From: Muribaculaceae bacterium
GTDB lineage: Bacteria > Bacillota > Clostridia > Lachnospirales > Lachnospiraceae
Direction of reading: 5' to 3'
NCBI GenBank assembly: GCA_023663465.1
Contig: JAMPHJ010000002.1
Coordinates: 26,039-90,038, forward strand
DNA: 64,000 nt
Part shown: one piece after another, positions 1 through 38,083 of the stretch
Numbering within the stretch: position 1 is the stretch's first letter
Layout: each line of letters starts with the position of its first letter
Position numbers and translations under genes: made by a program
The notes under the pieces: model-generated
Told to the model about the DNA's origin: nothing
The model's input: the letters and a program-made list of their open reading frames with translations, nothing else
Databases searched by the model: none

Positions 1-1
1 A

Positions 2-784
2 AAAGCCTTGGCGGAGCAGTTGTTTGGCGATGAGAATAACTGTATCCGTTTCGATATGAGTGAGTTTTCAGAGGCGCAGGCTGACCAGAAATTATTTGGC
101 GCGCCGCCCGGATATGTGGGCTATGAGGCAGGAGGACAGTTGACCAATGCTATCAAGGAAAGACCTTTTTCTATTTTATTATTTGATGAGATAGAAAAGG
201 CGCATCCGTCCATTATGGATAAATTCTTACAGATACTTGAGGACGGCCGCATGACAGACGGTCAGGGGAATACGGTCTATTTTTCAGAGACCTTGATTAT
301 TTTTACAAGTAATCTTGGAATCACACAGAAGTATATCGATGCAAACGGCAGGGAACGAAGGGAACAGCTAGTATTTCCAAGCGAAACCTATGAGGAAATC
401 GAACCGAAAGTATTGAGCGCCATCAAAGACCATTTTAAGCCGGAGGTTTTAAACCGGATAGGAAACAATATCATCGTTTATGATTTTATCAGACCGGAAG
501 CGTCGAAAGCCATTGTGAAAGGACAGATTTCCAAAATTAATGCGCGTATTGCGAAACAAAATAAAATCACAATCAATGTCCCGGAAGATGTTTACGAATT
601 TTACTATGCACAGGCAAATCATGACGAAGTCCTGGAAATGGGCGGCAGGGGAATCGGAAATATGATGGAAGAAAAATATATTAATTCTTTAGCGGAGTTT
701 ATTTTTGAAGCGGATTGCAAAGAAGGCGATTCCATAGCGGTTGTTGTGGATGGCGATAAGGTAAAGTTTGTAAAAGCAATTTAG
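2..784 (+). CDS. ClpA/ClpB-type AAA+ ATPase, C-terminal (AAA_2-like) part; 5'-truncated by the window edge
   Basis: The frame is open from position 2 (KALAEQLFG...). Motifs: FDMSEF, pore loop GAPPGYVGY, Walker B LLFDEIEKAH, LEDGRMTD, IFTSNLG. Sensor-2 reads GGRGI rather than the GARPL of housekeeping ClpB/ClpC. Confidence 0.9.
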   Translation, partial: KALAEQLFGDENNCIRFDMSEFSEAQADQKLFGAPPGYVGYEAGGQLTNAIKERPFSILLFDEIEKAHPSIMDKFLQILEDGRMTDGQGNTVYFSETLIIFTSNLGITQKYIDANGRERREQLVFPSETYEEIEPKVLSAIKDHFKPEVLNRIGNNIIVYDFIRPEASKAIVKGQISKINARIAKQNKITINVPEDVYEFYYAQANHDEVLEMGGRGIGNMMEEKYINSLAEFIFEADCKEGDSIAVVVDGDKVKFVKAI

Positions 785-807
785 AGAAAGGGGCATGGTT
801 ATTCGAT

Positions 808-1572
808 ATGTTTTCCTATGCAGGCAAAGTAGATATAGGAGTATATGAGAAACAGAATGATGATAGATTGCTAATAGGCTCTCATATACTGACGGATGGG
901 GAATTTTCAGACAGTACGGAGAAGGATTATATTGTTGCGACAGTTTGTGACGGTGTGGGCGGTATGGTGGAAGGATACCGGGCGGCGATGATTGCTCTGG
1001 AAACCTGCAGCCATTTGAACAGACCGGGAGTTACGACTGTGGACATCAAAGAGATGATAGAAGTATCTAACAGACGGATACGGAACATACAGAGTATGGA
1101 AAATCTGCAGAATGGTTTAAGGACGACGATAGCAGGAATCTATGCGGATAAAGAGCATTTTATCGTATTCAATGCAGGAGATAGCAGAGTATACCGGTTT
1201 CGTTTTAAATATTTCACCCAGATATCCAAGGATCATTCATTGGTGCAGGAGCTTATTGATATCGGTGAAATTACTCCCGACGAGGCTAAGGTGCACCCAA
1301 AGAAAAATATTATCAATAAATGTTTAGGCAATGAGGAAACGGTGAATCCAAGAATTGTAGATATGTCGGATGATTTCGCAGAGAATGATATCGTTATGAT
1401 ATGTTCGGACGGAATCTCAGATGAAGTTTTAGATGCTGAATTGAAAGAGATTCTATTGGCGCATAAGCAGGATGAATCCCTGCTTGAATGCTGTAGACTG
1501 ATAGCGCAGAAGGCTGTAGAAAAAGGGTCAAAAGATAATATGAGTGTTATTTTGCTCAGGAAGGGAGCTTAG
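808..1572 (+). CDS. PP2C/PPM-family Ser/Thr protein phosphatase
   Basis: NDDR, VCDGVGG, NAGDSRVY, SKDHSLVQ, ICSDGISD and GSKDNMS motifs; no TM segment. Confidence 0.95.
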   Translation: MFSYAGKVDIGVYEKQNDDRLLIGSHILTDGEFSDSTEKDYIVATVCDGVGGMVEGYRAAMIALETCSHLNRPGVTTVDIKEMIEVSNRRIRNIQSMENLQNGLRTTIAGIYADKEHFIVFNAGDSRVYRFRFKYFTQISKDHSLVQELIDIGEITPDEAKVHPKKNIINKCLGNEETVNPRIVDMSDDFAENDIVMICSDGISDEVLDAELKEILLAHKQDESLLECCRLIAQKAVEKGSKDNMSVILLRKGA

Positions 1573-1576
1573 AATA

Positions 1577-3973
1577 ATGGACGATGAAAGAATCCCCACG
1601 ATGCCGCAGGCGGAAGACAGTTTATCTGAACGGATACCAACGATGCCGCAGATGGAGGACGGTGTATCCGAACGGATACCGACGATGCCGCAGATGGAGG
1701 ACGGTGTATCCGAACGGATACCGACAATGCCGCAGATGGAAGATGGGTTATCCGAACGGGTGCCGACGATGCCCCAGGGACAGGCGGACGCAGATGGACG
1801 CGTGGCGACGATGCCGCAGCAGGGAATGACACAGAATGGCGTAGTAGGCGGAAGGCTTATTGTTACATCCGATATTCATTTTACTGGCGATAAGGGATTG
1901 TCCTTTGTTATCGAATCGAATCATGTGGTAAGCGCGGACAGCGGTGAGTCGCAGATTTACGGCTGCCATAAATCAATTGGAAATGAGAAATATGTCGCAA
2001 GAATCCTGATTTCCGTTACCCCGGAATCAGATGCGGACAAAAGATTAACGCGCGATAAGGTGATTCGTTTCCTGGATAGTATCAGTGCAAAAGAAGACAG
2101 TCATATTCTGCCATTAATCGAGCATGGAACAGCCAATATCAATGGAAAAACCTATTTTGTAGAAATTTATCCATTCTGCGAAAGCGGTGATTTAGGCAGA
2201 CGGAAAGGGCAGATTTCTTATCAGGAATTACATGATGAAATCATCCCGGCATTAAATGAGGCGCTGCATCTCTTCCATAATGCCGGATTGGTACATAGAG
2301 ATGTAAAACCGGATAATTTATATCGGTATAACGATAAAATTGTCATAGGTGATTTCGGTATTACCTGTGATTTGCGGACGGATGGTTTTGCAACGGATAG
2401 GTATAAGACCGGAACCTTGGGCTATTATGCGCCGGAGCTGATGTCTCAGGCCGCTATTACATCATCAGATTATTATTCCTTCGGACAGACGATATGGACC
2501 CTGTATTATGGAGAAATGATGTATCGGAATCTTTTGCGCCGCTGTAAGGCATACGGCATTGAAGAGCAGAGAAATCAGATTAATTTCGCCATGCTGAATA
2601 ATGTGTATTATGGATTAGAGGAAATAAGACCGGAGGACGCTTTTTTTGAAATATTAGTCCGGGGACTCCTTCAGTATGACCCGTCTAGCCGTTTCGGTTA
2701 TGAACAGGTGGCGCGCTGGCTCAGAGGCGATAAGTCGGTTGCCCGCGAGATTGCCAACTTTGACAGCAAGGGGACTTTCAAAACAGCGTTTGTCTATCAT
2801 GGCAAGGAATGCTGGGATAGCAATGATATTTATAATGTATTGGTTGAAGATTGGGAAAACGCAAAGGAATTGCTTTATACGGGCATGTTAAAAGATTTCT
2901 TTGTATCACAGGATTTCGGCATGTCCATTGAAATCGATAAGATAGTCAAGACCTACTCTACCCTGCGGGCGGATAATGGGCGTAAAGTGACCGATGAAGA
3001 AATTGAGACACAAAATGATATCGGACTTGGTAAATTTTTCATGCTTCTGAATAAGGGAGCGACGCTGGTATGGAGGGCGACACAGTATAAAAACTTTGAA
3101 GGGCTTGCCGCCCATATCGCGCAATATATCTATAACTCGGATTCTGGGAATGCCAATGCCCATTTTACAGATTTGCTTGGCTCAGATTTACTTGGATACT
3201 GGTACCAGTATCAAACGTCCGGAAAGGGAACCTTTGATGAAGGAATCGCAGATGTCATCAATCATATCAGATTGTTGGCGGGGGCGGATTCAGAGTGGGT
3301 TCAGTGGATTGCCTATGCGACGACTTGTTACCTTTTTGCCGGTAATTCGGAGGCGCTTAATTTCAGGGAATGTAAGACCTTAAATGAGATTGGAAAGTAT
3401 GTGGCAGAATTGTCCGGGGATTTTTATGCCGGAGTTGCCAGCGTCTTAACAAGCGCATTTTTCTATGGGTTTCTTTTTGCCAGCGGCTATGGAGAACATG
3501 CATGGTATATGATTAACCGAATCCAAAACGGCAGGGCGTATGAGGACGTCGAAATGCTTTTTGATTTATTTAACGCAGAAATAGATGATTCAGAAATAAA
3601 AAAAGCAGTTATGGATTGTTACTTGAAAAAAGGACCGTATGCACATTTATATTGGTGGAAGAACCATTTAGAGTTGTATAGTTTTCATTCCGCAGAGGCA
3701 GATGCCATAAAGACGGAAATAGAGAGCTGTGCGGTTTCTGGAAAGGATATTCAGCAGCTTCGGGAAGGATTTGCAAGGCTGGAACAGCTTGCGATTAGAT
3801 TCCGTGAAATGTTTGTTGATAATATATTCCTGGCAAGTCTTGGACTTAACAAAGGTAAAAACGATATTACGGCAGAGAAAGCGGCTGCCTATTGGCATTA
3901 TAATTTTCTGGACAGAGAGGCGCCTATCGGATTTCGTTTATACATTGAGGAAGGAGGAGTGAATCGTGGCTGA
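1577..3973 (+). CDS. Hanks-type Ser/Thr protein kinase with N-terminal TMPQ tandem repeats and a long helical C-terminal region of unknown function
   Basis: HRDVKPDN, GDFG, GTLGYYAPE and DYYSFG motifs. ATG at 1577 follows AAGGGAG, 4 nt after the PP2C stop (the ORF-track GTG at 1544 overlaps PP2C). The beta-3 position reads VAR rather than VAK. Confidence 0.9.
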   Translation: MDDERIPTMPQAEDSLSERIPTMPQMEDGVSERIPTMPQMEDGVSERIPTMPQMEDGLSERVPTMPQGQADADGRVATMPQQGMTQNGVVGGRLIVTSDIHFTGDKGLSFVIESNHVVSADSGESQIYGCHKSIGNEKYVARILISVTPESDADKRLTRDKVIRFLDSISAKEDSHILPLIEHGTANINGKTYFVEIYPFCESGDLGRRKGQISYQELHDEIIPALNEALHLFHNAGLVHRDVKPDNLYRYNDKIVIGDFGITCDLRTDGFATDRYKTGTLGYYAPELMSQAAITSSDYYSFGQTIWTLYYGEMMYRNLLRRCKAYGIEEQRNQINFAMLNNVYYGLEEIRPEDAFFEILVRGLLQYDPSSRFGYEQVARWLRGDKSVAREIANFDSKGTFKTAFVYHGKECWDSNDIYNVLVEDWENAKELLYTGMLKDFFVSQDFGMSIEIDKIVKTYSTLRADNGRKVTDEEIETQNDIGLGKFFMLLNKGATLVWRATQYKNFEGLAAHIAQYIYNSDSGNANAHFTDLLGSDLLGYWYQYQTSGKGTFDEGIADVINHIRLLAGADSEWVQWIAYATTCYLFAGNSEALNFRECKTLNEIGKYVAELSGDFYAGVASVLTSAFFYGFLFASGYGEHAWYMINRIQNGRAYEDVEMLFDLFNAEIDDSEIKKAVMDCYLKKGPYAHLYWWKNHLELYSFHSAEADAIKTEIESCAVSGKDIQQLREGFARLEQLAIRFREMFVDNIFLASLGLNKGKNDITAEKAAAYWHYNFLDREAPIGFRLYIEEGGVNRG
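1586..1819 (+). repeat. Intragenic 42-nt tandem repeat (14 aa, consensus ERIPTMPQMEDGVS), 6 copies, outer copies degenerate
   Basis: The Thr codon of TMPQ falls at 1598, 1640, 1682, 1724, 1766 and 1808, an exact 42-nt period. Confidence 0.95.
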
Positions 3974-5384
3974 TAGAAGTGTAATCAAATATTTTGAAAG
4001 TGCATATCAGGAAGCAAATGCCTATTCTCAAAAAGTCCTGGAAGAATATGAAAATATCGGTGCAAGCTATGTGAAAAAAGATAAGTTTTATACGCCCTTT
4101 TCTTCCAAAGAAATTGTATGGACGGCAGTATATTTAATTGTTGGTATTGCCGGTCTCATATTGCATGGGACTGCCTTTGGGTACATAGAAAAATATCTGT
4201 TTTCCAGATGGAAGTTTGACGTTTTGGAAGGATATCTTTCCTTAGTTTATAATCTGGCGTTTACCGGTCTGCTTGCCTTGGGAATCTGGTATTTATTTAA
4301 ACTCATCTATTCTATGAAGGTTAAACGCGAGCTTGACGATATTGCCAGACTTTCGGATTCCTTAAAAGCAGATTTAAAAAATTTGCGGGAACATGTAGAA
4401 GAGCGCATGGCGGAATTTTTTGCAAATCCCGGCGGGGTGTCGATTGGAAATGTGAATCAGCATGAAAACGCTCTTGAGAAATACAAAAATAAGGTGGATA
4501 CCATCGAGAAGAAAACCACACAGGCAAAAACGATATTTCTTTTCGTACTTTTTGCCGCATTGATGGTGATTCATTTTCTGTTTTTGGGAAGATATGCGGT
4601 TGTTTCCATCAAGGCGAGATATAGTTATCCCTCTACCTTTGTTGTGTGCAGTTCTTATTTACTACTTTTTGCAGTACTGTATGAATTTCAGATATCCACT
4701 TATGAGTATTTAAAAAGAACCACGAAGTATGTGGCGATTGCAGCGTTTGTAATTTATCAGGCTGCGATGGGACTGCTGATGAGAAAGTATGACCTTTTTC
4801 ATGGTATGTTACATATCAACAGCGATTTAAAAGAGGACGCCGCAGAGTGGCTTCTCATGATATATGATTTCTTAGAGAAATATATTTTGACGAAGGGAGC
4901 ATTGATTTTGATTGTGCCTTCCATTCTGTGCATTATGTTTATCATACGGACCGATGCGGAAAAAGACATCCGAATGGGCAGGGAAGGTTTTGTAGTTCCC
5001 ATGCTAGGCGCTGCGGACAGGGTATATTCTGCCACCCATACAAAAATACGAAATAAAGGAGCATTTATTGCAGGGGCAGCCTATGCGGCGATAGCGCCAA
5101 AATACATGGCACAGATACTAGGGAATAAAATGTCGTTTGGGCGGGTAGTGTTGTATATTGTATTAGGCATGGTATGGTTTGGCGTCGGATTATTTTTTCC
5201 CGGAAAAGAAGGAAGAGCGGTATGTGGAAAGCGGCTTGACTGGGTAAAACATAGCTTTTTCGTATGCTACATGTTCCTAACGCTCGCGATGCTTCCGGGT
5301 TTTGATGTGGACAGGATTCTTCTTATCCTGCTCCAGCCTGCATTAACAATGATAGTATTTGGGATTATAGGGTTGATTATTTAA
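3966..5384 (+). CDS. Hypothetical polytopic membrane protein with a coiled-coil-like soluble segment
   Basis: GTG start after GGAGGAG, overlapping the kinase stop by 8 nt. Two N-terminal hydrophobic helices, a charged helical stretch, then about 7-8 more hydrophobic segments. Confidence 0.8.
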   Translation: MADRSVIKYFESAYQEANAYSQKVLEEYENIGASYVKKDKFYTPFSSKEIVWTAVYLIVGIAGLILHGTAFGYIEKYLFSRWKFDVLEGYLSLVYNLAFTGLLALGIWYLFKLIYSMKVKRELDDIARLSDSLKADLKNLREHVEERMAEFFANPGGVSIGNVNQHENALEKYKNKVDTIEKKTTQAKTIFLFVLFAALMVIHFLFLGRYAVVSIKARYSYPSTFVVCSSYLLLFAVLYEFQISTYEYLKRTTKYVAIAAFVIYQAAMGLLMRKYDLFHGMLHINSDLKEDAAEWLLMIYDFLEKYILTKGALILIVPSILCIMFIIRTDAEKDIRMGREGFVVPMLGAADRVYSATHTKIRNKGAFIAGAAYAAIAPKYMAQILGNKMSFGRVVLYIVLGMVWFGVGLFFPGKEGRAVCGKRLDWVKHSFFVCYMFLTLAMLPGFDVDRILLILLQPALTMIVFGIIGLII

Positions 5385-9798: not shown

Positions 9799-9829
9799 CA
9801 AATTGGAAAAAGTGAACGGAGGCGTCCCG

Positions 9830-12800
9830 ATGGAAATTCGATATATGATGCCTGCTGATGATAGAATGGCAATCAGTAAGATATATGAAGAAAGCTGGAA
9901 ATATGCCTATCATGGGATTATACCGCAAAGCTATCTTGAGTCGATTCCAGAAGGAAAGTGGGCATCAAATCTGGACGATCCCCGCTGGAAAACGTTAGTT
10001 TGTATAGAGGATGGCAAATTGATTGGAACGAGTAGTTTTGGTAAGTCCAGGTTTGAAAAATTTGATGGCTGGGGAGAAATCATTTCAATCTATCTGTTGC
10101 CTCATTATATCGGAAAAGGATATGGAAAAATTCTTTTGCAGGGCGTGGTTTTAGAATTGGAAAAAATGGGATATGAAGATATTTTTTTATGGACGCTTAA
10201 AGAGAATACCAGGGCAAGGCATTTTTATGAGCGATTCGGTTTCTTGAAGACAGAGGATTCTTTAGCGGATAATATTGGCGGAAAGGAGCTGACGGAAATT
10301 AGGTATGTTTATAAAAGGAGCAACTCCCCAATGAACAATCTTCAAGAATTGCAAACTAAAATCCAATATCTGGAAGAAGAAAATAATTATCTGAAGTCTT
10401 TACTGAATCATGCGGGAATATCTTATGATACCCCCATAAACAGGCCAAATACGGAATTGTTTGACCCAAATCAGGGGGCAAGAATTATCCATAAGGATAT
10501 TACGGATAAGGATGCCAATCTGTTTTTTGGGATGTTTTGGGGGCGTACGGATGTTTATAGTAAACGAACGATAAAGAAGTCTACTGGTGAAGTGAATTAT
10601 TATACGCAGTGTTATAATTTTTGGAAGAATGGGTGTCCTAGAAAAATTGGCAGCAAAATAAAATGTCAGGATTGCAGTAAACAGGCATATGCAAAGCTGG
10701 GCAAGCAGCAGATTATAGAGCATTTAAAAGGTAGTGCCGAGGATTCTACAGACGTTATCGGGATATATCCGCTTCTAGAGGATGATACCTGTAGGTTTAT
10801 CGTTTTTGATTTTGATAATCATGAGAAAGGCGCAGAAAAATACGATTTTGCCAATAAAGACGATGCATGGAAAGAGGAAGTCGATGCTTTAAAAGAAATC
10901 TGTATCCTAAACGGAACAGACCCACTTATCGAACGGTCCAGGTCTGGACGGGGAGCGCATGTATGGATATTTTTTCAACAGAAAATCGAAGCGTCGCTGG
11001 CAAGGAAATTTGGCAATGCGTTGCTTAGAAAAGGGGCTGAGTCCGTAAATCTAAAATCTTTTCATTTTTATGATAGAATGCTGCCGGCGCAGGAGCATCT
11101 GCCGCAGGGCGGTGTGGGGAATCTGATTGCACTTCCTTTACAGGGGCAGGCGTTAAAGGACGGGAACAGCGCCTTTGTTGACGATAATTGGAATGCGTAT
11201 CCGGATCAGTGGAAAGTATTATTTAGTAAGCCGAAGCTTTCAGAGGAATTTCTGAAAGAAAAGATAAAGGAATGGAATATGTCCGGCTCCGGTGAAATGG
11301 CTGGGACGCAGGATGTTTTTGGGGAGGATGGAGAGAAGCCTTGGAATAAGACAGATTATTTTATAAAAGCTGATGTAGAGGGTAAATTAAGGATAACGTT
11401 AGCGGATGGTGTGTATGTTGATACGGCAAATCTTGAGCCTAGAATACAGAACAGAATTAGGGAATTGGCAGCATTTCATAATCCGTTATTTTATAAGAAT
11501 CAGGCAATGGGATTATCTAATTTTGCAAATTCCAGATTTATTTATCTTGGCAGTGATGAGAGGGGCTACATAAAAATTCCAAGAGGGTTGTTTGAAAACG
11601 TTATAGAAGAGTGTGAAAAGGCAGATATTACATATCAGATTCAAGATGAGCGTTGTCAAGGGAAAAAACTTCGTTTAGCGTTTCATGGAACGCTGAAAGA
11701 GACGCAGGAATTGGCTGTTAATACTTTGCTAAAGAATGAGATAGGAATACTAAATGCAGCAACGGCATTTGGCAAAACGGTTGTCTGTTGTAATATCATT
11801 GCCAGGCTTAGTATTAATACATTGATATTGCTTCAATCCTCAGCATTGTTGGAGCAATGGGAAAGCGCTTTGAATAAATTTTTAATGATAAATGAGGAAC
11901 CGCCGGAATATGAAACACCAACCGGAAGAAAGAGGAGGAGAAAAAGTGTAATCGGAAAGCTGCAAGGCGCGCATGATTCCACAACAGGGATGATTGATAT
12001 TGCTATGGCTGGTTCTGTTTGTAAAAAGGGAAAATTCCATGAGAGATTAAAAGACTACGGACTTGTAATTGTGGATGAATGTCATCATGCTGCAGCAGAT
12101 ACCATTGTAGAAGTGTTGCAGGAAGTAAATGCAAAGTATGTGTATGGGGTAACAGCTACGCCGTTTCGTAGTGATGGATTGGAAAAGATAAATGAAATGC
12201 TTCTTGGACCTATCAGATATCGGTATACTTCAAAAGACAGGGCGAAGGAACAAGGCATTGAACATTTAGTTTATCCAAGATTTACAAGGGCGGTGGCGCC
12301 GCGGTTTGCACAGGAAAGAATGCACCCGAATGAGGCGTATGCGATTCTAAGAGAAAATGAAGATAGGGATAATATCATTGTAAATGATGTGATAAAATGT
12401 GTGGAAGACGGAAGGACTCCGGTAGTTCTTTCAAAATATGTTGACCATTCAAGAAAGCTGTATGAACGTCTGGCGGGATGTGCAGACTATATCTTTTTAC
12501 TTTCAGGTGAAAATTCTAAGAAAGAGCATAGGGCTATTTTGCAGCAGATGGAACAGGTAGAAGAGAAGGAAAGCATGATTCTGATAGCAACCGGAAAGCT
12601 GATTGGCGAGGGTTTTGATTTTCCGAGACTGGATACGCTTATTATGGCAATGCCGATATCGTGGAAAAGTGTTGTCGAGCAGTATGCGGGGCGTCTGAAC
12701 CGGGATTATGAGGGAAAAGAAAGCGTCGTCATTTATGATTATGTAGACAGTCATATTCCGATGTTTGAAAAAATGTATAATAAGCGGCTGAAAGCATATA

Positions 12801-13300
12801 AGCAGATAGGATATGATGTGTCTGTAAAAAGCGCAGGCGAAAAGCAGGAGTCGGGTTCTATCTTTGATATAGACAGCTATCTGGAAGTTTATCAACAGGA
12901 TTTGCTGGAAGCGGATAAAGAGATTATGATATCCAGTCCTGTTATCAGTGGATTCAAAGTGGAAGAATTAATCAGATTGCTAAAAGAAAAGCAGGAGTCA
13001 GGAGTCGTAATACGGATTATTACATGGAAGCCGGATAAGTATGGTTTTGGTGATAGTGCGTATTGGATGGAATTGCAGGAGCGAATGCGAAAACAGGGAT
13101 TTGAAATGAATCTTGTAGAAGATTATTGCCAGCATTACTGTATCATTGACAGGGAAATTGTGTGGTATGGCAGTATGAATTTTCTTGGAAAAGAGGACAG
13201 CGAGGATAATCTGATGCGCGTGCGCAGTAAGGAAATAGCGGACGAACTTGTAGAATTGACGTTTGTAAATTCTGAGAAGAAGCTGGGGGAAAGTATGTAG
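9830..13300 (+). CDS. Fusion protein: GNAT acetyltransferase + AEP-type primase-like domain + SF2 (ResIII/DEAD-like) helicase + degenerate PLD-like domain
   Basis: GNAT: SIYLLPHYIGKGYGKILL, NTRARHFYERFGF. AEP-like: FDFD, SRSGRGAHVW, GNLIALPLQ, with Cys pairs. Helicase: ATAFGKT, DECHH, GVTATP, QYAGRLNR. PLD-like: QHYCIIDREIVWYGSMN. ATG 9830 follows GGAGG. Confidence 0.85.
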   Translation: MEIRYMMPADDRMAISKIYEESWKYAYHGIIPQSYLESIPEGKWASNLDDPRWKTLVCIEDGKLIGTSSFGKSRFEKFDGWGEIISIYLLPHYIGKGYGKILLQGVVLELEKMGYEDIFLWTLKENTRARHFYERFGFLKTEDSLADNIGGKELTEIRYVYKRSNSPMNNLQELQTKIQYLEEENNYLKSLLNHAGISYDTPINRPNTELFDPNQGARIIHKDITDKDANLFFGMFWGRTDVYSKRTIKKSTGEVNYYTQCYNFWKNGCPRKIGSKIKCQDCSKQAYAKLGKQQIIEHLKGSAEDSTDVIGIYPLLEDDTCRFIVFDFDNHEKGAEKYDFANKDDAWKEEVDALKEICILNGTDPLIERSRSGRGAHVWIFFQQKIEASLARKFGNALLRKGAESVNLKSFHFYDRMLPAQEHLPQGGVGNLIALPLQGQALKDGNSAFVDDNWNAYPDQWKVLFSKPKLSEEFLKEKIKEWNMSGSGEMAGTQDVFGEDGEKPWNKTDYFIKADVEGKLRITLADGVYVDTANLEPRIQNRIRELAAFHNPLFYKNQAMGLSNFANSRFIYLGSDERGYIKIPRGLFENVIEECEKADITYQIQDERCQGKKLRLAFHGTLKETQELAVNTLLKNEIGILNAATAFGKTVVCCNIIARLSINTLILLQSSALLEQWESALNKFLMINEEPPEYETPTGRKRRRKSVIGKLQGAHDSTTGMIDIAMAGSVCKKGKFHERLKDYGLVIVDECHHAAADTIVEVLQEVNAKYVYGVTATPFRSDGLEKINEMLLGPIRYRYTSKDRAKEQGIEHLVYPRFTRAVAPRFAQERMHPNEAYAILRENEDRDNIIVNDVIKCVEDGRTPVVLSKYVDHSRKLYERLAGCADYIFLLSGENSKKEHRAILQQMEQVEEKESMILIATGKLIGEGFDFPRLDTLIMAMPISWKSVVEQYAGRLNRDYEGKESVVIYDYVDSHIPMFEKMYNKRLKAYKQIGYDVSVKSAGEKQESGSIFDIDSYLEVYQQDLLEADKEIMISSPVISGFKVEELIRLLKEKQESGVVIRIITWKPDKYGFGDSAYWMELQERMRKQGFEMNLVEDYCQHYCIIDREIVWYGSMNFLGKEDSEDNLMRVRSKEIADELVELTFVNSEKKLGESM

Positions 13301-17165: not shown

Positions 17166-18245
17166 ATGGGAATATTCACAAAAAGCATAGGTCCGGTATT
17201 TTTAAAGGAAACAAGCGATGTAGACGCTTATCTTGAAAAACTTCAAGGGCTTTTGGCACAAACGGAAGGTGAAAATGCCAATCTGATTAAGAAACAAATC
17301 AATATAGCAAATGCAGGCAGATACGGCGAGTCCAATATCGCTTTTGAATTGAAAAACAGCGGAATGGATATGTATATTCTTCATGATATTTACTTAGAAT
17401 ATGGCGATTTATCTGCGCAAATTGATTATCTCGTCATTACAAGAAAACATATCTATGTTATCGAATGCAAGAATTTGATAGGCAATATGGAAATTGACAA
17501 TACAGGAGCTTTTATCAGAAAATATGAATTTTCCGGAAAATTTATAAAAGAAGGCATCTATTCACCCATCACGCAGAATCAAAGGCATTTGCAGGTATTA
17601 AAAGAGGTTCGCAAAAGTAGTAAAGGCAATCTGCTTACTAAAATACTGTTTGAAAAGTCTTTTGAAAATAACTATTAGTCCATTGTGGTATTGGCGAATC
17701 CCAAAATCTGCCTTCAGGCAAGATATGCACCGAAAGAAATAAAGCAGCAGGTAATCCGGGCGGATCAGCTCATTGCCTACATCAGAAAAAAGGATGATGA
17801 GTCTAATGGGGAAATGGGTATTACGGAAATGCGTACCCTTGCAGAATTTTATCTTGAACAAAATAAACCGGACAGATCAGACTATGCACAGAAATATGAA
17901 AAACTTGCACAGAATATCGTTAGTCAACCACCTAAAGCTGATACCAGTGCGGAAGCGGCTGAAGGAGAAGCGCTTCCAACGAATAATTTGGAGTCTGCTG
18001 AAGTTGACGCAGGATATGGAAATAAAGAAGATATTAGGAAGCAGTTAAAAGAATATCGCCTGAAACAAAGCAGGGCTGAGAAAATCAAGCCATATTATAT
18101 TTTTAACGACGCGCAAATGGAGGACTTATTGGATAAAATGCCCCGGACAAAAGAAGGGCTGTTAAAAGTTTCCGGTTTTGGAGAAGTGAAGACGGGAAAA
18201 TATGGGGAGGATATTATAGGGATTTTACAAGGAGCAGATAATTAG
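17166..18245 (+). pseudogene. NERD nuclease-related domain + C-terminal HRDC domain protein, interrupted by an in-frame TAG at 17676-17678
   Basis: NERD: GRYGESN, QIDYLVIT, VIECKN, SPITQN. HRDC: LKEYRLKQS..IKPYYIFND..P.T...LKVSGFG..K..KYG. The two ORFs are in the same frame (...NNY*SIVVLANPK). Confidence 0.75.
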
Positions 18246-20739: not shown

Positions 20740-21675
20740 ATGAAAGTTGTATCATTCTTTAGCGGACTAGGCGGGCTTGATAAAGGTTTTGTAGATACAG
20801 GTTATGATATAATATGGGCAAATGATTTTGATAAATTTGCGGTGCAGACATATAAGGCTAATTTTGGCGGGCATATTGTATTAGGTGACATTAAGGAAAT
20901 ACCATTAGATGAAATACCAGATTTCGATGTATTAATAGCTGGATTTCCATGTCAGCCATTTAGTATGATGGGGCGGAAGAAGGGATTTGAGGATGCCAGG
21001 GGTACATTATTCTTCAGAATAGCAGAAGTGGTCGCTGACAAGATAGAAAAAGAGAAAAGACCAAAAGCAATCATTCTGGAAAATGTGCGTTCCTTAAAGG
21101 TTCATAATAACGGAAAGACCTATGAGGAAATACATAGAATCCTGCAGGATGAACTTGGATATAAAGTTTTCTGTGATATATTAAATTCCGCGGATTATGG
21201 GGTTCCACAGACCAGAAATAGGACATATATTGTGTGCTTTGATAATCAGACGGTAGAATATCAATTTCCAGTTGGTCAAAAACTGGATAAAACCTTGCAG
21301 GATTTGCTGGAACAGGAGGTAGATAGAAAATATTTTCTGTCAGATAGGATATTGCCTACGATATTATCTGACGGAACAGGCGGATACAAGGCAAAATCAG
21401 AGATAGATTTAAAAGTTGCCAGACCATTATGTGCAACTATGGCAAAAATGCACCGGGCATGCCAGGATAACTATGTGACACAGGAAGGAAGGGTGAGAAG
21501 GCTTACCCCGAGGGAATGTGCAAGGCTGCAAGGTTTTGACGATTCTTTTGTAATACCGGTATCCGATTGCCAGGCATATAAGCAGTTTGGCAATGCAGTT
21601 ACAGTCAATGTGTCAAGGGCAGTAGCCCAATCCGTAAAAGATACATTGAAAATGCTTGGAGAGTGGGAAGATTAG
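20740..21675 (+). CDS. DNA (cytosine-5)-methyltransferase M1
   Basis: FSGLGG, GFPCQPFS, LENV, PQTRNR, LTPRECARLQGF and QFGNAV motifs. Confidence 0.96.
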   Translation: MKVVSFFSGLGGLDKGFVDTGYDIIWANDFDKFAVQTYKANFGGHIVLGDIKEIPLDEIPDFDVLIAGFPCQPFSMMGRKKGFEDARGTLFFRIAEVVADKIEKEKRPKAIILENVRSLKVHNNGKTYEEIHRILQDELGYKVFCDILNSADYGVPQTRNRTYIVCFDNQTVEYQFPVGQKLDKTLQDLLEQEVDRKYFLSDRILPTILSDGTGGYKAKSEIDLKVARPLCATMAKMHRACQDNYVTQEGRVRRLTPRECARLQGFDDSFVIPVSDCQAYKQFGNAVTVNVSRAVAQSVKDTLKMLGEWED

Positions 21676-23112
21676 ATGGAATACAAAAATGATAAAAACG
21701 AGTTTATTGCGTTTGCACAAGCCGGTCTGGATTCTATAAAAGGTAATGATGCCGGAGTGTGCATAAGCCGTGTCACGAGAGATGTAAATGAGTTATTTTT
21801 GAAAGATAGGGCAGCATTGTATCGCAGGGAAATAAAAACGGATGATGATTTGCAAGAAGCTTTCATGAAATTATCGGTTATTTGCAATAATGAAAGACAA
21901 AATTGCGTGGATTGTCCGGTCTGTAAATATTGTAATACTTATATTGAAAATGCCAGAAAAAATGTTGACGGCGGCTCTTTAAAGATGGTTGATTTATTTT
22001 GCGGGGCCGGTGGTTTATCTTTAGGTTTTTCTCAAGAAGGATTTATAACAAGTCTGGCAAATGATATACAGGAATGTTGTGTGGATACCTATGCGCATAA
22101 CCATCCGGAAACACCGAGGAATCATATCATTTTAGGTGATATTAAGGATGTAATAAGGGATTTGGATGAATTGTCTGCAGAACAAAAGGTAGACATTGTG
22201 ATTGGCGGTCCGCCTTGTCAGGGATTTAGTATGGCGAATCGACAAAGGCTGATAGATGATCCTAGAAATAATTTATATAAAAATTATGTGGAGGCTGTAG
22301 AAAAAATACATCCCGGTTTTTTTGTAATGGAAAACGTAAAAGGGATGCAGTCTGTGGCGGAACAGGTCAAAGAAGATTTTAAGAAGATTGGTTATTCGGT
22401 AGAATGTCATGTGTTGAATGCGAAGGATTTTGGGGTGCCCCAGAATAGGGAAAGGCTTATCTATATAGGAAATTGTGTGGGTGTTGATAATGCGCAGATT
22501 TTTAAAGATATTTTTGAACTGAGTAAAAAGATTCCAGAACATAATCTGGGAGAAGCATTATACGGACTTAGGGAACTAAGTGCATCGAGAACAAAAAATA
22601 CTACAGAAATTGATTCACAGGAAAGTGGATGCAAAATCGAAAAAAATATGCATACGGATACAAATGATTATATAACTTATATTAATCAGGGTAGAACCGT
22701 AAAAGTGGTTTCAAATCACAAAGCAAGATATAATAATGACAGGGATATTGAAATTTTTGGACGTATGGAACCGGGAGATCGCTCAGATGATCCGAAAATT
22801 GCGGATATTATGCCATATTCCAGAAGAAATGATATTTTTAAAGATAAGTATTTTAAGTTAGAAAATGATAAAGTATGTAAAACAATAACTGCACATATGA
22901 AGTTTGATTGTAATATGTATATTCACCCGACGCAGGCAAGAGGACTGACGCCTAGGGAAGCAGCAAGGGTACAGTCATATCCGGATGACTATTTTTTCCG
23001 GGGGGCGTATACAAAAACATATATGCAGATAGGAAATTCAGTGCCCCCATTATTGGGAAGGGCAATTGCGCAGGTAATAAAACGTTATATGAAGGGGAAA
23101 AGTGTTTTATGA
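21676..23112 (+). CDS. DNA (cytosine-5)-methyltransferase M2 with an N-terminal Cys-rich extension
   Basis: DLFCGAGG, GGPPCQGFS, MENV, PQNRER, LTPREAARVQSYPD and QIGNSVP motifs; N-terminal CNNERQNCVDCPVCKYC. Confidence 0.95.
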   Translation: MEYKNDKNEFIAFAQAGLDSIKGNDAGVCISRVTRDVNELFLKDRAALYRREIKTDDDLQEAFMKLSVICNNERQNCVDCPVCKYCNTYIENARKNVDGGSLKMVDLFCGAGGLSLGFSQEGFITSLANDIQECCVDTYAHNHPETPRNHIILGDIKDVIRDLDELSAEQKVDIVIGGPPCQGFSMANRQRLIDDPRNNLYKNYVEAVEKIHPGFFVMENVKGMQSVAEQVKEDFKKIGYSVECHVLNAKDFGVPQNRERLIYIGNCVGVDNAQIFKDIFELSKKIPEHNLGEALYGLRELSASRTKNTTEIDSQESGCKIEKNMHTDTNDYITYINQGRTVKVVSNHKARYNNDRDIEIFGRMEPGDRSDDPKIADIMPYSRRNDIFKDKYFKLENDKVCKTITAHMKFDCNMYIHPTQARGLTPREAARVQSYPDDYFFRGAYTKTYMQIGNSVPPLLGRAIAQVIKRYMKGKSVL

Positions 23113-24755
23113 ATTTTACAGAAGCAATGGAAGTTATTAAAAATGTAATTCCAGAGTATACACAGAAATGGTATGATGGAATCGTCGTTAAAAGACTGGA
23201 AGCGTCCAATACCCTGGATGAGGGCAGATCAACAAACCAGACTCATATTGCGATATCTGGTGAACAGATGGACATGTTTCCGTATCTGATGGCGGATGGA
23301 TATTTTAAATGTAATTATGAAGATAGGGATGAACAATTGAAAAAATACTTTATCACACAGATTCCGCTTTATATTTATAAAAATAATATCATGTATCTGT
23401 CAGGCAATAGGGAAAGTAGAATCAGTTTTGATGAAGAGGAAAGCAAATGCGTCCGTGCCAGTATTGTAAGAAGCCGGAGAAAAGAACAGGCGGATCAAGT
23501 CCAGCTATCACTTACATCAATAGACGATCAGGATTTTGTTGCATTTAGAAGGTTATTGCATGTAGGAGACTATCTGGTCTTGTTAAAGCATAAAGAAAAA
23601 CTTTCTTATGACTGCATCGGGGTTAAGGCAAAGGATGAGACTAGAGGCGGATACCATCTTTTGACACTTAATAATAGGTTTTATAAGCTGTCTACCAATA
23701 CAAAAGTGGATATCCAGAAACTTATTGAAATCAAGGATGTGGAAGAGGTTCCTAATCATGATAAAACATTAGGAGCAGGGCAGGGCAGTGGCGTGCGTAA
23801 AACAGGGGCGGAAAACATTTTGTTTTATGGCGTTCCGGGAGCAGGTAAGAGTCATGAAATTAAGACGAAATATTGTACAGATGAACAGCGGATGGAACGG
23901 GTAGTTTTTCATCCGGATTATATGTATACAGATTTTGTTGGACAGATTTTGCCAAGAGTGGAAAGAGATGGAGAAGGTAATGACAAATTAAAATATGTCT
24001 TTAGTCCTGGACCTTTTACAAAAATGCTGAAGAAAGCAGAAAACGATCCAGACAATTACTATTATCTTGTTATTGAAGAATTAAACCGTGGTAATGCGCC
24101 CGCAATTTTTGGTGAGACATTTCAACTGCTTGATCGGAAGGATGAGGATGAATTTCCAAAGGAAGAAATTGGTGAAAGTGAATATAGTATTTCAAATTAT
24201 GAGGTTGCAAAAGAAGTATATGGGAAGGAGGATCATTCAGTAAGGATACCTTCTAATATGTATATATTAGCAACCATGAATACGGCGGATCAGAATGTAT
24301 TTGCTATGGACACTGCATTCCAGAGAAGATGGAATATGAAACGGATAGAAAATAAATTTGACGAGTCGGAGCATTCAAAGGATATTATTGCAGGAACAAA
24401 AGTAAATTGGGGGGCATTTGCAACTGTTATTAATGATATGATAATTGAAATCAATATTGATATGATAAATACTGAAGATAAGCGTCTTGGAATTTATTTT
24501 GCCAAGAAAAAAGAATTAGAAGTAAATATATTTCCAGAAAAGGTGCTTAAATACTTATGGGATGATGCATTTAAAATGGATAGAACTGCCATATTTAATG
24601 AGAACTGCAAATCATTGGACGACGTGATCGCCGCTTATAAAGATTCCCAAAGCGATAAACTGGAAGCAGTATTAAAAGCAGGCGTATATGAAAAAATGCT
24701 TTCTAAAATGCAGCAAAATAAGGAAAGTCAGGTGGTAGCTTTTGAGGGAAATTGA
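23109..24755 (+). CDS. McrB-like AAA+ NTPase restriction subunit (R1.LlaJI-like)
   Basis: GVPGAGKS, FHPDYMYTDFVG, IEELNRGN and ATMNTADQN...DTAFQRRW, after an approximately 210-aa N-terminal putative DNA-binding domain. Confidence 0.9.
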   Translation: MNFTEAMEVIKNVIPEYTQKWYDGIVVKRLEASNTLDEGRSTNQTHIAISGEQMDMFPYLMADGYFKCNYEDRDEQLKKYFITQIPLYIYKNNIMYLSGNRESRISFDEEESKCVRASIVRSRRKEQADQVQLSLTSIDDQDFVAFRRLLHVGDYLVLLKHKEKLSYDCIGVKAKDETRGGYHLLTLNNRFYKLSTNTKVDIQKLIEIKDVEEVPNHDKTLGAGQGSGVRKTGAENILFYGVPGAGKSHEIKTKYCTDEQRMERVVFHPDYMYTDFVGQILPRVERDGEGNDKLKYVFSPGPFTKMLKKAENDPDNYYYLVIEELNRGNAPAIFGETFQLLDRKDEDEFPKEEIGESEYSISNYEVAKEVYGKEDHSVRIPSNMYILATMNTADQNVFAMDTAFQRRWNMKRIENKFDESEHSKDIIAGTKVNWGAFATVINDMIIEINIDMINTEDKRLGIYFAKKKELEVNIFPEKVLKYLWDDAFKMDRTAIFNENCKSLDDVIAAYKDSQSDKLEAVLKAGVYEKMLSKMQQNKESQVVAFEGN

Positions 24756-25962
24756 TATAAGAAGTAAATGCAAAATCAATTCTAATCAAGAAAGGGATAC
24801 ATTTGTCGGTATAAGATGGAGTGACGGCGATATCAGCATTCATTTTCCGATAGGTTATCATATTTCGGAGGATAACAAAGGGCTGCGGAAGGATATTATG
24901 CTGTTGTTTGCTACGCTTGCAGAGCATACAAAGAAAAAGGAATCAGAAATTCCAGGTTATGGAAATAGTTTTGATGAGGTGGAATTTCCAATGCAGTCAT
25001 ATCTTTATATAATAAAAGATTTTTTGGCGAGGGGTTATTATAGAGAAAGGAAAATGTATCATAAGACCGCCAAATCGGGTAAGATAAACTGGAACAAAAC
25101 AATAAAAATGCAAAAACCATATGTACAGGATAAAGAAGTGTTTTATCTGGATTTTGTTATAAAGAAGAATTGTATTAAGGAAAATGAACTGATTACCTTG
25201 ATACATGAATATTGTGTATATGAAAGTTTCGGATGGATTGGCTGGCTTTTTACAAAAGAAATGCCTAAGAAGCCACAAATTGCCAAAAAGGAAAAGATAT
25301 TTAAAGTAGTTCTGAATAAAATGATTTCACAAACTTTTCAAGATAAAGATAGAATGCTTTTCCGGCATATGCTGGCAATCCTGGATTATGAAGGAAATAA
25401 AAATTCAGATAGGAACTATCGGTATGGAACATACCGTTTTGAATATGTCTGGGAAAAAATGATTGATAAAGTGTTTGGCATTGAAAATAAGGCTGATTAT
25501 TTTCCAAAAACAAGCTGGTATTTGAACGGTAATGAATATCATAATGCTTCACTGGAACCTGATACAGTTATGCTATATGGGAATAATGTGTATATTCTGG
25601 ATGCAAAGTATTATAAGTATGGCGTGACCGGCAGTGCGAGGGATTTGCCGGAGTCTTCCTCGATTAATAAACAGATTACTTATGGAGAATATGTGACTGG
25701 CGAACGGGAGTTTAAGAAGAAACATGGGAATGATATGAAGGTATTTAATGCATTTCTTATGCCATTTGATTCTTTGAAAAGTCAATATCCGGGGCATCCA
25801 GGAATGTTAAAAGTGGGCGAGGCAGTTAGTAACTGGAAAGATAATTCTGAAGAGTATCAGAGGATTCAGGGCATTCTGATAGATGTCAGGACTTTGATGA
25901 ATATCAATGTACGTCAGGAAATAAAGGAAATCGAGGAACTGGCAGAGCTGATAAAAAATTGA
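24742..25962 (+). CDS. LlaJI-family/McrC-like PD-(D/E)xK restriction endonuclease
   Basis: FEYVWEKMID, LEPDTVM, ILDAKYY and INKQITYGEY; overlaps the McrB-like gene. Confidence 0.88.
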   Translation: MREIDIRSKCKINSNQERDTFVGIRWSDGDISIHFPIGYHISEDNKGLRKDIMLLFATLAEHTKKKESEIPGYGNSFDEVEFPMQSYLYIIKDFLARGYYRERKMYHKTAKSGKINWNKTIKMQKPYVQDKEVFYLDFVIKKNCIKENELITLIHEYCVYESFGWIGWLFTKEMPKKPQIAKKEKIFKVVLNKMISQTFQDKDRMLFRHMLAILDYEGNKNSDRNYRYGTYRFEYVWEKMIDKVFGIENKADYFPKTSWYLNGNEYHNASLEPDTVMLYGNNVYILDAKYYKYGVTGSARDLPESSSINKQITYGEYVTGEREFKKKHGNDMKVFNAFLMPFDSLKSQYPGHPGMLKVGEAVSNWKDNSEEYQRIQGILIDVRTLMNINVRQEIKEIEELAELIKN

Positions 25963-25977
25963 TTGTTAGGTGATTTT

Positions 25978-26421
25978 GTGGCAGATGTTTTGACAAAAGA
26001 ACAACGACATAAAAATATGAAAAATATCCATGGAAAGGACACAAAGATAGAAATAATATTGAGAAAAGCTTTGTGGCATAAAGGGTATCGTTATCGCAAA
26101 AATTATAAAAAACTTCCAGGCAGCCCGGACATCGTATTGACAAAATACAAAATAGCGATTTTCTGCGATGGGGAATTTTTTCACGGAAAAGATTGGGAAG
26201 TATTGAAACCAAGACTGGAAAAGGGCAGCAACAGTGAATTTTGGATTAGTAAAATATCCCGCAACAAGGCGCGGGATGATGAAATAAACAAGAAATTACT
26301 GTTTGAGGGCTGGACCGTGATACGTTTCTGGGGCGATGATATAAAGAAATGTCCGGACGAGTGTGTGAAGGTTGTGGAAGAGACAATTTTTGATATGATG
26401 ATGTATGGGAATGGAGAGTAG
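25978..26421 (+). CDS. vsr: Very-short-patch repair endonuclease
   Basis: ADVLTKEQRHKNMKNI, DTKIEIILRKALW, LPGSPDI, FCDGEFFHG and GWTVIRFW; adjacent to C5 MTases. Confidence 0.93.
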   Translation: MADVLTKEQRHKNMKNIHGKDTKIEIILRKALWHKGYRYRKNYKKLPGSPDIVLTKYKIAIFCDGEFFHGKDWEVLKPRLEKGSNSEFWISKISRNKARDDEINKKLLFEGWTVIRFWGDDIKKCPDECVKVVEETIFDMMMYGNGE

Positions 26422-33680: not shown

Positions 33681-35639
33681 ATGAATACAATAGACTACGC
33701 ATTAGTAGAAGAAAAAAGACCCCCGATGTATACGGCGATGAAATATTGGGGGAAAAAACCGCATAACATATGGGGCAAATACATAGAGACCTATACGGAA
33801 GAAAACGATATCATCTTAGATCCTTTTGCCGGCAGCGCAGTGGCGGCTTTTGAGGCGGTGAAATGCGGCAGGAAGGCGTTAGCGTTTGATATCAATCCCT
33901 TGACCTCTTTTTTGATTGACGTGTATTCTACCGAATTTGAGGAAGAAAAATTTGCCAGCAGCGTGAGGCAGATTGTGGAAAAGGTGCAAAAGGACGAAAT
34001 CGTTTCATACTATTACCGGACGAAATGCAGCTGCTGCGGAAAGGAAACTGCGTGGGTGCAGCATTTTAAATGGGATAGCGGCGTGATTTATGAGTATGGG
34101 GTAGAATGCGAAAAATGTGAAAAGCGTTATCTGCGGGAAGCGGATGACGAGCAGCTAAAGAAGAGCAGGGAAATGACAGGGATTGTCATGAAAAATTGGT
34201 ATCCTGCGGATAAGTTTTACGAAACGCCGAGCATAAGTGAAGCTTTTATACAGAAGATTGGCGGTGATGGTTACTCCGATATCTGGACGAGACGGAATCT
34301 GTATGTTTTATCTGAAATCTGCAAGGGGATTGAAGAAGAGCAGGATGAAACGATAAAGAAGCAGTTGTTGTTCGGGCTGATTCAGAGTGTGCATTTATGC
34401 TCTAAGATGTGTGTGCCGCGCCGGGCGGAGGCAAAGAGGGGTTTTTCTACAAGCTGGGGCAGGTCGGCTTATATCTGTTCTGCAAGGCAGATGGAAATGA
34501 ATCCGCTGTTAGTATTTTATAACAATTGTCTGGGGAAGCAGTCGGTAAAAAGCGCGCTGGTGAACGTAAAGCAGCATTTAGGGAAAGTGCCGCAGTGCTT
34601 TTATCTGGATAAGAATCATCCGCCGCAGCTTTCTATTTTGGAATTATCGAAAAAATATGATATTATATACGGAATATTAGATATCCGAGAACTGCCAGAG
34701 ATGGTGCCGGAAGAAAGCGTCCGTTTTATTATCACGGACCCGCCCTACGGCGGTCTGGTGCAATATATGGACCTCAGCAATTTATGGCTGATATGGCTGA
34801 AGCATTTTGATGCGAAATACACGCCGGATATCAGTAAGGAAATAACGATTAAAAAAGGCATGATAGAAATCGAGGAATATAGCAGAAGATTCACGGATGG
34901 AATCAGGAATTTAGAACGTGTGCTTGCGCCCGGCGCAAAATTGGTGATTACATTCCACAATCAGGAAATAGCGGTGTGGAATGCTTTTTTACGTTCTATC
35001 TGTCAGGCGGGGTTCCAGATTGAAAAGGTGATTCATCAGCAAAACAGGAGAACCGGGGAATCGAATGTGTCAAATCCCTACGGAACCTCGGCGAGCGATT
35101 TTTATATCCGTTGTTCCAAGGCAGATTACGTTGCCAAAGAAAAGACGAACAAAGCGGAATTTGAGCGGTTTATCGTAGATAGCGCAATCAAAATCATTGC
35201 ATCGAGGAGCGAACCTACGCCGTATCAGATTTTGTTTAACGGGTTATTGGCAGAGCTTTCCGGGGCAGGATTCGAGCTGGAAGATTTCGACGATACCATA
35301 CAGCAGCTTTTAAAAAGGCATGTGGGGGATGTTTTTGAAATTATCCAGACGAATCAAGTCTACGGTCCCTTATGGTGGTTTCGCGACAAGACCCTCATCC
35401 GGCAGGATTTACTTCCGCTGAGCCAGCGGGTAGAGAAAACGGTGCAAACGGAGTTAAAAGAAAAGGGTAAAATGAAGGCGGACGATATTCTGGCTGCATT
35501 ATTTATGCAATATCCGAACGAATTGACGCCCGATGTAAAAAAAATAGACGAATATATTAAAAAATATGCACACCCATCTGGAGGCTTATGGATTTATAAT
35601 GGAGAGGAAAGAACATACGGAGATAGTGAGGACCAATGA
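33681..35639 (+). CDS. DNA amino-methyltransferase (probably N6-adenine) with a zinc-ribbon insertion and C-terminal extension
   Basis: Motif I ILDPFAGS near the N-terminus, CSCC...CEKC insert, motif IV ITDPPY. Confidence 0.88.
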   Translation: MNTIDYALVEEKRPPMYTAMKYWGKKPHNIWGKYIETYTEENDIILDPFAGSAVAAFEAVKCGRKALAFDINPLTSFLIDVYSTEFEEEKFASSVRQIVEKVQKDEIVSYYYRTKCSCCGKETAWVQHFKWDSGVIYEYGVECEKCEKRYLREADDEQLKKSREMTGIVMKNWYPADKFYETPSISEAFIQKIGGDGYSDIWTRRNLYVLSEICKGIEEEQDETIKKQLLFGLIQSVHLCSKMCVPRRAEAKRGFSTSWGRSAYICSARQMEMNPLLVFYNNCLGKQSVKSALVNVKQHLGKVPQCFYLDKNHPPQLSILELSKKYDIIYGILDIRELPEMVPEESVRFIITDPPYGGLVQYMDLSNLWLIWLKHFDAKYTPDISKEITIKKGMIEIEEYSRRFTDGIRNLERVLAPGAKLVITFHNQEIAVWNAFLRSICQAGFQIEKVIHQQNRRTGESNVSNPYGTSASDFYIRCSKADYVAKEKTNKAEFERFIVDSAIKIIASRSEPTPYQILFNGLLAELSGAGFELEDFDDTIQQLLKRHVGDVFEIIQTNQVYGPLWWFRDKTLIRQDLLPLSQRVEKTVQTELKEKGKMKADDILAALFMQYPNELTPDVKKIDEYIKKYAHPSGGLWIYNGEERTYGDSEDQ

Positions 35640-36528: not shown

Positions 36529-36553
36529 TATGCAAAAGAGGAGCGAGGATTTC

Positions 36554-38041: not shown

Positions 38042-38083
38042 CCCATATCCCGCTCCTGCCATAAAAGAAATGGAATCACATAT

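Follow-up and report, generated by a model that had tools for sequence, protein, structure and literature searches.

A seven-gene cassette (g1-g7) lies across the left edge of the window, the 64,000-nucleotide stretch of DNA analysed here from a Muribaculaceae bacterium (GCA_023663465.1, contig JAMPHJ010000002.1, here termed C105; C105:26039-90038). The cassette is real and conserved. Its conserved core is g1 together with a Clp-type ATPase with one active ring (g4) and an NrdG-like radical S-adenosylmethionine (SAM) enzyme (g3). The best explanation, with a probability of about 0.5, is that phospho-Thr would gate its unfoldase and radical SAM enzyme, with a variable sensor at the membrane and a probable role in biological conflict. 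The cassette likely senses and answers a biological threat from outside. The gene set is not in print in the literature searched and no named system matches it.

The window holds the back half of the cassette only; three of its genes and the 5′ part of the ATPase gene lie before the window start. An initial reading from the window alone (the sequence-only reading) had placed the operon start upstream, and this was confirmed with the finding of g1, g2, g3 and the first half of the ATPase there. Its description of four packed, co-directional genes followed by sbcD is also correct, with intergenic gaps of exactly 23, 4, -8 and 15 nt and sbcD beginning at 5400. Among the upstream partners it had suggested, FHA (g2) and radical SAM (g3) are present; no vWA match was found among the seven proteins. 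The features are as follows.

g1, C105:22346-23647, upstream, outside the window: 433-residue coiled-coil protein, from MSGPK, without a known family
g2, C105:24373 as its end and 23654 as its start (C105:23654-24373), upstream, outside the window: 239-residue protein with zinc ribbons and FHA
g3, C105:24373-24954, upstream, outside the window: 193-residue NrdG-like radical SAM enzyme (Fer4_12)
g4, whole gene, C105:24951-26822, starting 1087 bases before the window: 623-residue Clp-type AAA+ protein
g4, 3′ part, window 1..784 (open reading frame (ORF) 2-784, 5′ open), + strand: Clp-type AAA+ ATPase
g5, window 808..1572, + strand: PP2C phosphatase with intact metal-binding Asp motifs
g6, window 1577 (ATG)..3973, + strand: 798-residue soluble Ser/Thr kinase with N-terminal Thr repeats, a kinase domain and a fast-diverging C-terminal half
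Tandem array in g6, window 1598..1777, + strand: 42-bp units coding RIPTMPQ repeats, at which the FHA protein might dock on phospho-Thr
g7, window 3966 (GTG)..5384, + strand: 472-residue polytopic membrane protein with two helices, a soluble loop and five helices

Contigs of sequencing runs X1 and X3, both from one study, match the cassette at 100% and approximately 95% identity, each being interrupted at the 42-bp repeat. As these contigs cover the cassette, it is not an assembly artefact. The close protein matches carry the names Lachnospiraceae, Blautia and Clostridium, so that the host is Clostridium-like.

A full-length ATPase scan of genome contigs was swamped by housekeeping Clp proteins (full-length family members at 11 of 80 loci), and a profile of the first ring was used afterwards. 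This collected 120 loci, designated by L numbers below, of which 58 with flanks of no less than 7 kb upstream and 6 kb downstream represent 27 lineages at 70% ATPase identity. The radical SAM gene accompanies the ATPase in 24 of the 27 lineages, the kinase in 23, g1 in at least 18, FHA in 17, PP2C in 15 and the g7 family in one. All six genes of the g1-g6 kinds occur together in 12. The g1 count is a lower bound, because divergent proteins in the same slot (L171, L172, L181, L185, L220, L225) escape the profile, and gene order differs between lineages. The first ring was found in 3 of 60 genomes of the genus, 4 of 100 relatives and 10 of 400 genomes of the organism's own phylum. In other phyla it was found in 8 of 400 genomes (one a weak match) from the phylum of a Pseudomonas centre and in 5 of 300 from that of an actinobacterial centre. 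Its presence is patchy, at 2-5% in these samples; over the three phyla sampled, the ATPase family occurs in about 2% of genomes. Nine plasmid records carry the first ring, and no match to it was found in phage records.

The first description of g4, as a Clp-type ATPase outside the housekeeping set and paired with a dedicated kinase and PP2C, is supported here within a longer conserved operon. The g4 protein scores far under every NCBIfam Clp cut-off. Ring 2 is intact and of the ClpB type (AAA_2, E 3.4e-52; ClpB_D2-small), with Walker A and B, a GYVG pore loop, Arg finger and sensor-2 Arg, all invariant or nearly so. Both the ClpB pore loop (GAPPGYVGYEAGG) and the GGRGI sensor-2 motif reported initially are present. 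All 49 family members compared have G577 and R579, and GGRGI is therefore a family signature which keeps the sensor-2 Arg. Ring 1 is degenerate, as no GxxxxGK[ST] Walker A is found within residues 1-300 in any of the 49 members, with the fold kept in the predicted model. Comparison of ring 1 with the ring 1 of one ClpB gave an uninformative E of 0.4.

In the predicted model of g4 (pLDDT 83), residues 4-623 align to the two rings of ClpC/ClpB at a Z of approximately 30, residue 4-5 falling on residue 182-192 of ClpB/ClpC. Since the alignment with the rings runs from the fifth residue on, g4 is without an N-domain; it has no Clp_N match and the M-domain is likewise absent. The ClpP-docking IGF/LGF loop was seen in the loop region of one of the 49 family members. 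By its anatomy, g4 would be a one-motor unfoldase. It resembles ClpB, ClpC and ClpV in its double-ring shape and in the second-ring motifs listed above, but differs from them in the loss of the N-domain, M-domain, ring-1 Walker A and IGF loop and in the possession of an accessory operon. Copies at L004, L005 and L006, in which the ATPase is accompanied by one or two short downstream genes only, without g1, radical SAM or kinase, appear to be reduced or relict.

The predicted model of g1 (pLDDT 91.5) consists of an N-terminal strand (MSGP), approximately 290 helical residues and a C-terminal alpha/beta domain, followed by a mostly basic tail of low model confidence. The MSGP start is invariant, as is Cys371 within the alpha/beta domain. 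The strand and the alpha/beta domain align as a single unit, within the model of the whole protein, to KA1 domains with middling scores (Chk1 KA1, Z 8.2, root mean square deviation 2.5, 86 residues aligned; AMPK, Z 8.0; METTL16, Z 7.8). This alignment as one unit would explain the invariant start. The g1 profile gathers 2155 clusters at 50% identity. Foldseek returned no match to g1 at E<=0.001, which does not show the fold to be new. Nor does a sequence search of solved structures prove a new fold, having given generic helical matches only. An atlas gave unnamed clusters for g1 and no usable named match for its C-terminal domain, which again does not prove a new fold. An assignment of g1 as a PspA/ESCRT-III or WXG100 protein was rejected, with no such match among the rows listed from the structure searches and family scan. 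That of a glycyl-radical enzyme was also rejected, as the Gly of its RVVG is not conserved across the family.

The g3 enzyme shares the short radical SAM fold and CxxxCxxC of the NrdG and glycyl-radical activases, and NrdG is its best NCBIfam match. It differs in scoring under the NrdG cut-off (119.5 bits against 126.1), in its phylogenetic position and in its partners. In the phylogeny, the enzymes from 34 cassettes make up a single branch (95/89) that excludes the two NrdG of the genome, both of which are encoded next to NrdD-like genes. No glycyl-radical enzyme was found in the operon.

The motifs of the PP2C are all present (NDDR, CDGVGG, GDSR, SDGISD and DNMS), the FHA motifs of g2 are intact and g6 keeps HRDVKPDN, DFG and APE. 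As first read, the kinase is without the transmembrane/PASTA architecture, having no hydrophobic helix by hydropathy and no PASTA match. Its glycine-rich loop is non-canonical. Of the Hanks-type activity marks, HRD-K-N and DFG are present and the beta-3 Lys is replaced by Arg (VAR; R142, with the start codon at 1577 as residue 1), as it is in the five closest aligned relatives, a replacement that the sequence-only reading had overlooked. The kinase domain is 59-76% identical among relatives. The kinase gene is split in L003, and broken genes occur in L114 and L118.

The tandem array of g6 (42 bp, 4.3 copies, 88% matches) encodes six T-M-P repeats. FHA-linked kinases often start with Thr-centred repeats of variable number and sequence, such as RIPTMPQ, KTSAMP, TVLSSQ, QQTRREND and PTQRDQ. 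Of the lineage rows compared, 12 of 16 with FHA have a repeated Thr-start triplet ahead of the kinase domain, as do 2 of 8 lacking FHA, the rows being hand-picked, one per lineage, and seven of the FHA-less ones being kin rather than independent. All eight FHA-less rows have zinc ribbons fused to the kinase, and seven are without the DFG Asp. The seven kin rows carry a pseudokinase followed by a superfamily 1 (SF1) helicase and an MTES_1575 nuclease, with no beta-3 Lys in the two that were aligned. Many proteobacterial copies lack FHA and PP2C, with the zinc ribbons fused to pseudokinase, helicase and nuclease. As FHA domains bind phospho-Thr, phosphorylated g6 repeats would recruit the zinc-ribbon-FHA protein, rebuilding the arrangement that the fusion of zinc ribbons and pseudokinase hard-wires.

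The membrane protein g7 has seven hydropathy peaks and no family in Pfam. A direct search gave two matches among 5.8 billion proteins, the 7998 best word-sharing candidates being those scored. Genes in the same slot of close copies have the same layout, with a profile match probability of 96% (E 2.3e-9) at approximately 20% identity. Against L003/L089 a gradient of divergence is seen: the ATPase is 89% identical, the kinase domain 75%, PP2C 69%, g1-g3 62-65%, the kinase tail 29-31% and g7 approximately 20%. The g7 gene is the fastest-diverging of the cassette, hypervariable and subfamily-specific. The proposal that the membrane protein is a conserved effector is not upheld by this divergence or by the presence of its family beside the ATPase in a single lineage. 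With 20-30% identity where the ATPase has 89%, g7 and the kinase tail look like a variable sensor instead. In the L100-type lineage a homologous kinase tail (probability 97.6%) continues in a single chain into 6-8 membrane helices. A split, diversifying receptor made of g7 and the kinase tail is suggested by these comparisons.

The proposed mechanism begins at the membrane, where g7 and the C-terminal half of the kinase would act jointly as a variable receptor. Upon a signal, the N-terminal Thr repeats of the kinase would be phosphorylated, by g6 itself or, given the Arg in place of the beta-3 Lys, possibly by another kinase. The FHA protein would dock on the repeats and bring its zinc ribbons next to the kinase, as in the proteobacterial fusion. 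The ATPase would then thread g1, probably via its basic, loose tail, opening the domain that the MSGP strand keeps shut, and the radical SAM enzyme may act on or near the invariant Cys. The switch would be reset by the PP2C. In other lineages the output is coupled to an SF1 helicase and the MTES_1575 nuclease, which are fused to or beside the kinase at 15 of 59 loci and in 5 of 27 lineages.

Further genes suggestive of conflict adjoin some copies. Type III CRISPR and Csx1 genes adjoin L176, L178 and L179, and WXG100 and FtsK genes adjoin L171 and L182. In this genome, a TOTE primase-helicase gene and a restriction cluster lie downstream, 4.4 kb and 15 kb from the cassette, respectively.

Several observations weigh against the reading of the cassette as a phospho-Thr-gated conflict system. 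In three of the 27 lineages the ATPase occurs with no radical SAM gene beside it. The Arg at the beta-3 Lys position in g6 and its close relatives occurs despite the intact HRD-K-N and DFG, and such a replacement often cripples kinases. Between g7 and the membrane region fused to L100-type kinases, no significant sequence likeness was found (probability 1.9%). No recognisable toxic effector is found in this copy, and many copies sit amid housekeeping genes. The suggestion that the system co-localises with defence islands was not borne out. PADLOC at 1e-20 matched 5 of 129 flanking proteins at 18 cassette loci and 5 of 131 at nine housekeeping Clp loci, which is no enrichment. Loci with a flank match numbered 5 of 18 and 4 of 9, several matches being generic on both sides. 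This is a small test, covering 129 of 146 cassette-side ORFs and one of the four genus genomes whose copies lie near CRISPR genes. Proteins of more than 1300 residues were excluded on both sides, so the linked helicases were dropped.

The threonine-phosphorylation pathway of the type VI secretion system (T6SS) comprises the kinase PpkA, the PP2C PppA, the FHA protein Fha1/TagH and the Clp ATPase ClpV. All four protein kinds are shared with the cassette, which differs in having no T6SS structural gene in the operon, a soluble kinase, a dead ring 1 and the addition of a radical SAM enzyme and g1. The T6SS family scores are low, at 238 bits against a cut-off of 885 for TssH and 19 against 120 for TagH. 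The TerY-phosphorylation triad, which consists of the vWA protein TerY, a kinase and a PP2C, has the kinase and PP2C pair in common with the cassette; its vWA component is the one with no match in the seven proteins. The initial statement that no named system has this gene set stands, as PADLOC gives only a partial match to the ATPase and generic matches to the kinase, and none to g1, g2, g3, g5 or g7. The full component sets of Dodola, PDC-M37 and other PADLOC systems are absent from the cassette.

In the literature searched, at the level of main texts, only related designs were found: the MoxR-vWA ternary systems, Esr, KKP and a PspA-linked tandem ATPase with an inactive first ring. The passages available from PMC7159879, 10.64898/2026.09.08.750141, 10.64898/2026.10.19.760177, PMC11237479, PMC11188069 and PMC11341870 do not describe the gene set. 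Neighbourhoods of this kind may appear in Text S2.2 and Table S3 of PMC11237479 or in the source data of PMC7159879. The Esr epibiont-sensing system, in the passages available, has a variable surface sensor, an AAA+ ATPase, a kinase/phosphatase pair and FHA, often with zinc fingers, all of which recall the cassette (10.64898/2026.09.08.750141). Esr has MoxR and vWA, whereas the cassette ATPase is of the Clp type and is accompanied by no vWA match; the terms ‘radical SAM’ and ‘Clp’ are not present in the available text of that paper. The KKP antiphage module, a PP2C-kinase-kinase triplet, likewise relies in defence on a phosphorylation toggle built from kinase, FHA and PP2C (PMC11341870). It has two kinases with fused CSD and FHA, in contrast to the single kinase and separate FHA of the cassette, and its text, as far as available, has no AAA or radical SAM term. 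At L224:8248-10779 a PspA-like gene (by eye) precedes a 552-residue tandem ATPase, the N-terminus of which weakly matches the cassette first ring (E 4.7e-5). This arrangement is described in the accessible part of PMC11237479.

An unlikely though credible alternative is a dedicated protein-remodelling unit of the stress response (envelope, redox or heat), in which the membrane protein and kinase sense damage to the cell and not an invader. It would agree with the lack of defence-gene enrichment in the flanks, with the weak relationship of the first ring to the ATPase beside the PspA-like gene of L224, as arranged in that part of PMC11237479, and with the appearance of Ycf46 in parts of the cyanobacterial oxidative-stress literature. 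The extreme divergence of the sensor, the patchy presence of 2-5% and the helicase-nuclease fusions suit conflict systems better.

Directly upstream of g1, C105:4333-22153 encodes a helix-turn-helix (HTH) protein, an FHA protein and a pair of membrane Ser/Thr kinases, followed by two very large surface proteins, one of 2185 residues that is Ig-like and one of 1956 residues with DUF285/leucine-rich repeats (LRR). This HTH-FHA-kinase block is also found next to the cassette in L098 and L099. In the L132-L162 group, 1-4 BspA-type LRR genes lie between the radical SAM and ATPase genes, with DUF6273, DUF4236 and a DUF4011-type helicase as frequent extras. Sigma-factor-like, anti-sigma-like and TPR(-CHAT) genes adjoin the cassette in L122, L124, L126, L130, L170 and L181 (L181 scanned, the others by eye).

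It is rather improbable that the cassette is a threat relay aimed at other cells, which, like Esr or the T6SS kinase-FHA-PP2C checkpoint, would drive a secretion or surface response through the large surface proteins and the second FHA/kinase set. The upstream block with its surface proteins, its recurrence in L098 and L099, the LRR genes inserted in many copies, the WXG100 and FtsK neighbours of L171 and L182 and the similar parts list in the available passages on Esr (10.64898/2026.09.08.750141) are in keeping with such a relay. However, the seven-gene core has no MoxR, vWA or secretion-apparatus gene, the WXG100 link is seen at two loci only and the contig of a related strain (X3 record 7) diverges just upstream of g1. 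Least probable is that the kinase of this sub-lineage is a non-catalytic scaffold, its switch driven by another kinase or decaying, for although the shared beta-3 Arg, the non-canonical glycine-rich loop, the true pseudokinases of the proteobacterial type, the split kinase of L003 and the broken genes of L114 and L118 suit it, HRD-K-N, DFG and APE are kept in a domain 59-76% identical among relatives, and the PP2C and FHA motifs are intact.

The cassette also shares its design with the Ycf46-DUF1257-DUF2997-radical SAM unit, which was seen at L231, L236, L232 and L233. At L231 and L236, DUF2997, an NrdG-like radical SAM gene and a tandem ATPase, presumably of the Ycf46 type as named by eye, stand side by side. 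In the cassette and in the Ycf46 unit alike, a tandem ATPase whose first module is degenerate goes with an NrdG-like radical SAM enzyme and a small single-Cys alpha/beta unit. The active ring of Ycf46 is Cdc48/FtsH-like, whereas that of the cassette is ClpB-like. In L172, a divergent Clp-type cassette, the C-terminus of the g1-slot protein matches DUF2997 (probability 41%, E 2.7e-4, none of 40 shuffles as high). DUF2997 is matched by 116 of 120 members of this slot family, and in the tree the radical SAM enzymes of L172 and L231 fall together (97/95), each on a long branch. Profile matches of g1 itself to DUF1257 and DUF2997 are weak and in the right order (E 0.035 and 0.0045; probability 7.7% for DUF2997). 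The DUF2997 hidden Markov model matches 1 of 238 g1 members, and the families listed for 96 g1 members include no DUF1257 or DUF2997 Pfam match. Comparisons of g1 with the L172 family and of ring 1 with four Ycf46 sequences (E 0.11, uninformative) were not significant. None of 151 genomes from the organism's own phylum gave a match to DUF2997, and the first-ring profile found nothing in five DUF2997-bearing genomes. The sequences thus show a shared design, and common ancestry of g1 is not shown. Tentatively, the g1-ATPase-radical SAM core and the Ycf46 unit may be two branches of one hitherto unrecognised cross-phylum machine. In such a machine an AAA+ motor would open a strand-latched protein and an NrdG-like enzyme would add a radical or covalent mark, gated here by a receptor-kinase/FHA switch as immune signalling.

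The sbcD gene that follows g7 was rejected as a member of the system. Nine close sbcD orthologues in the genus (83-91% identity) have no g7 upstream, seven of them giving readable, differing ORFs there and two none. The slot before sbcD is filled by different genes in close relatives, and one other cassette copy, L095, is followed by sbcDC. In L246 a restriction-enzyme-like gene, presumably of the BsuBI/PstI type, fills the slot that the cassette fills here. Further along the window, 9803-13300 is one frame with a GNAT domain, TOTE AEP primase, SF2 helicase and PLD, either a fusion or two genes read through. The adjacent ORFs of 170 and 186 residues at 17166-18245 resemble one split gene. A low-GC stretch at 20740-26421 holds two cytosine methyltransferases, two restriction-enzyme-like genes and Vsr. 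Two DNA methyltransferase-like genes, a 503-residue gene and a 1637-residue RecQ-like plus UvrD-like double helicase lie at 33681-42997.

All seven gene products are small, all but one are soluble and clear point mutants are available, which leaves the cassette open to testing. Its g1 family, of more than 2000 clusters at 50% identity, is not named in Pfam. The literature searched describes no parallel for a radical SAM activase that lacks its usual enzyme and is linked to an unfoldase and a phospho-switch. If the kinship with the Ycf46 unit and the gating as immune signalling were both true, glycyl-radical-activase chemistry would be used in defence, and plastid Ycf46/Ycf35 would gain a mechanistic family.

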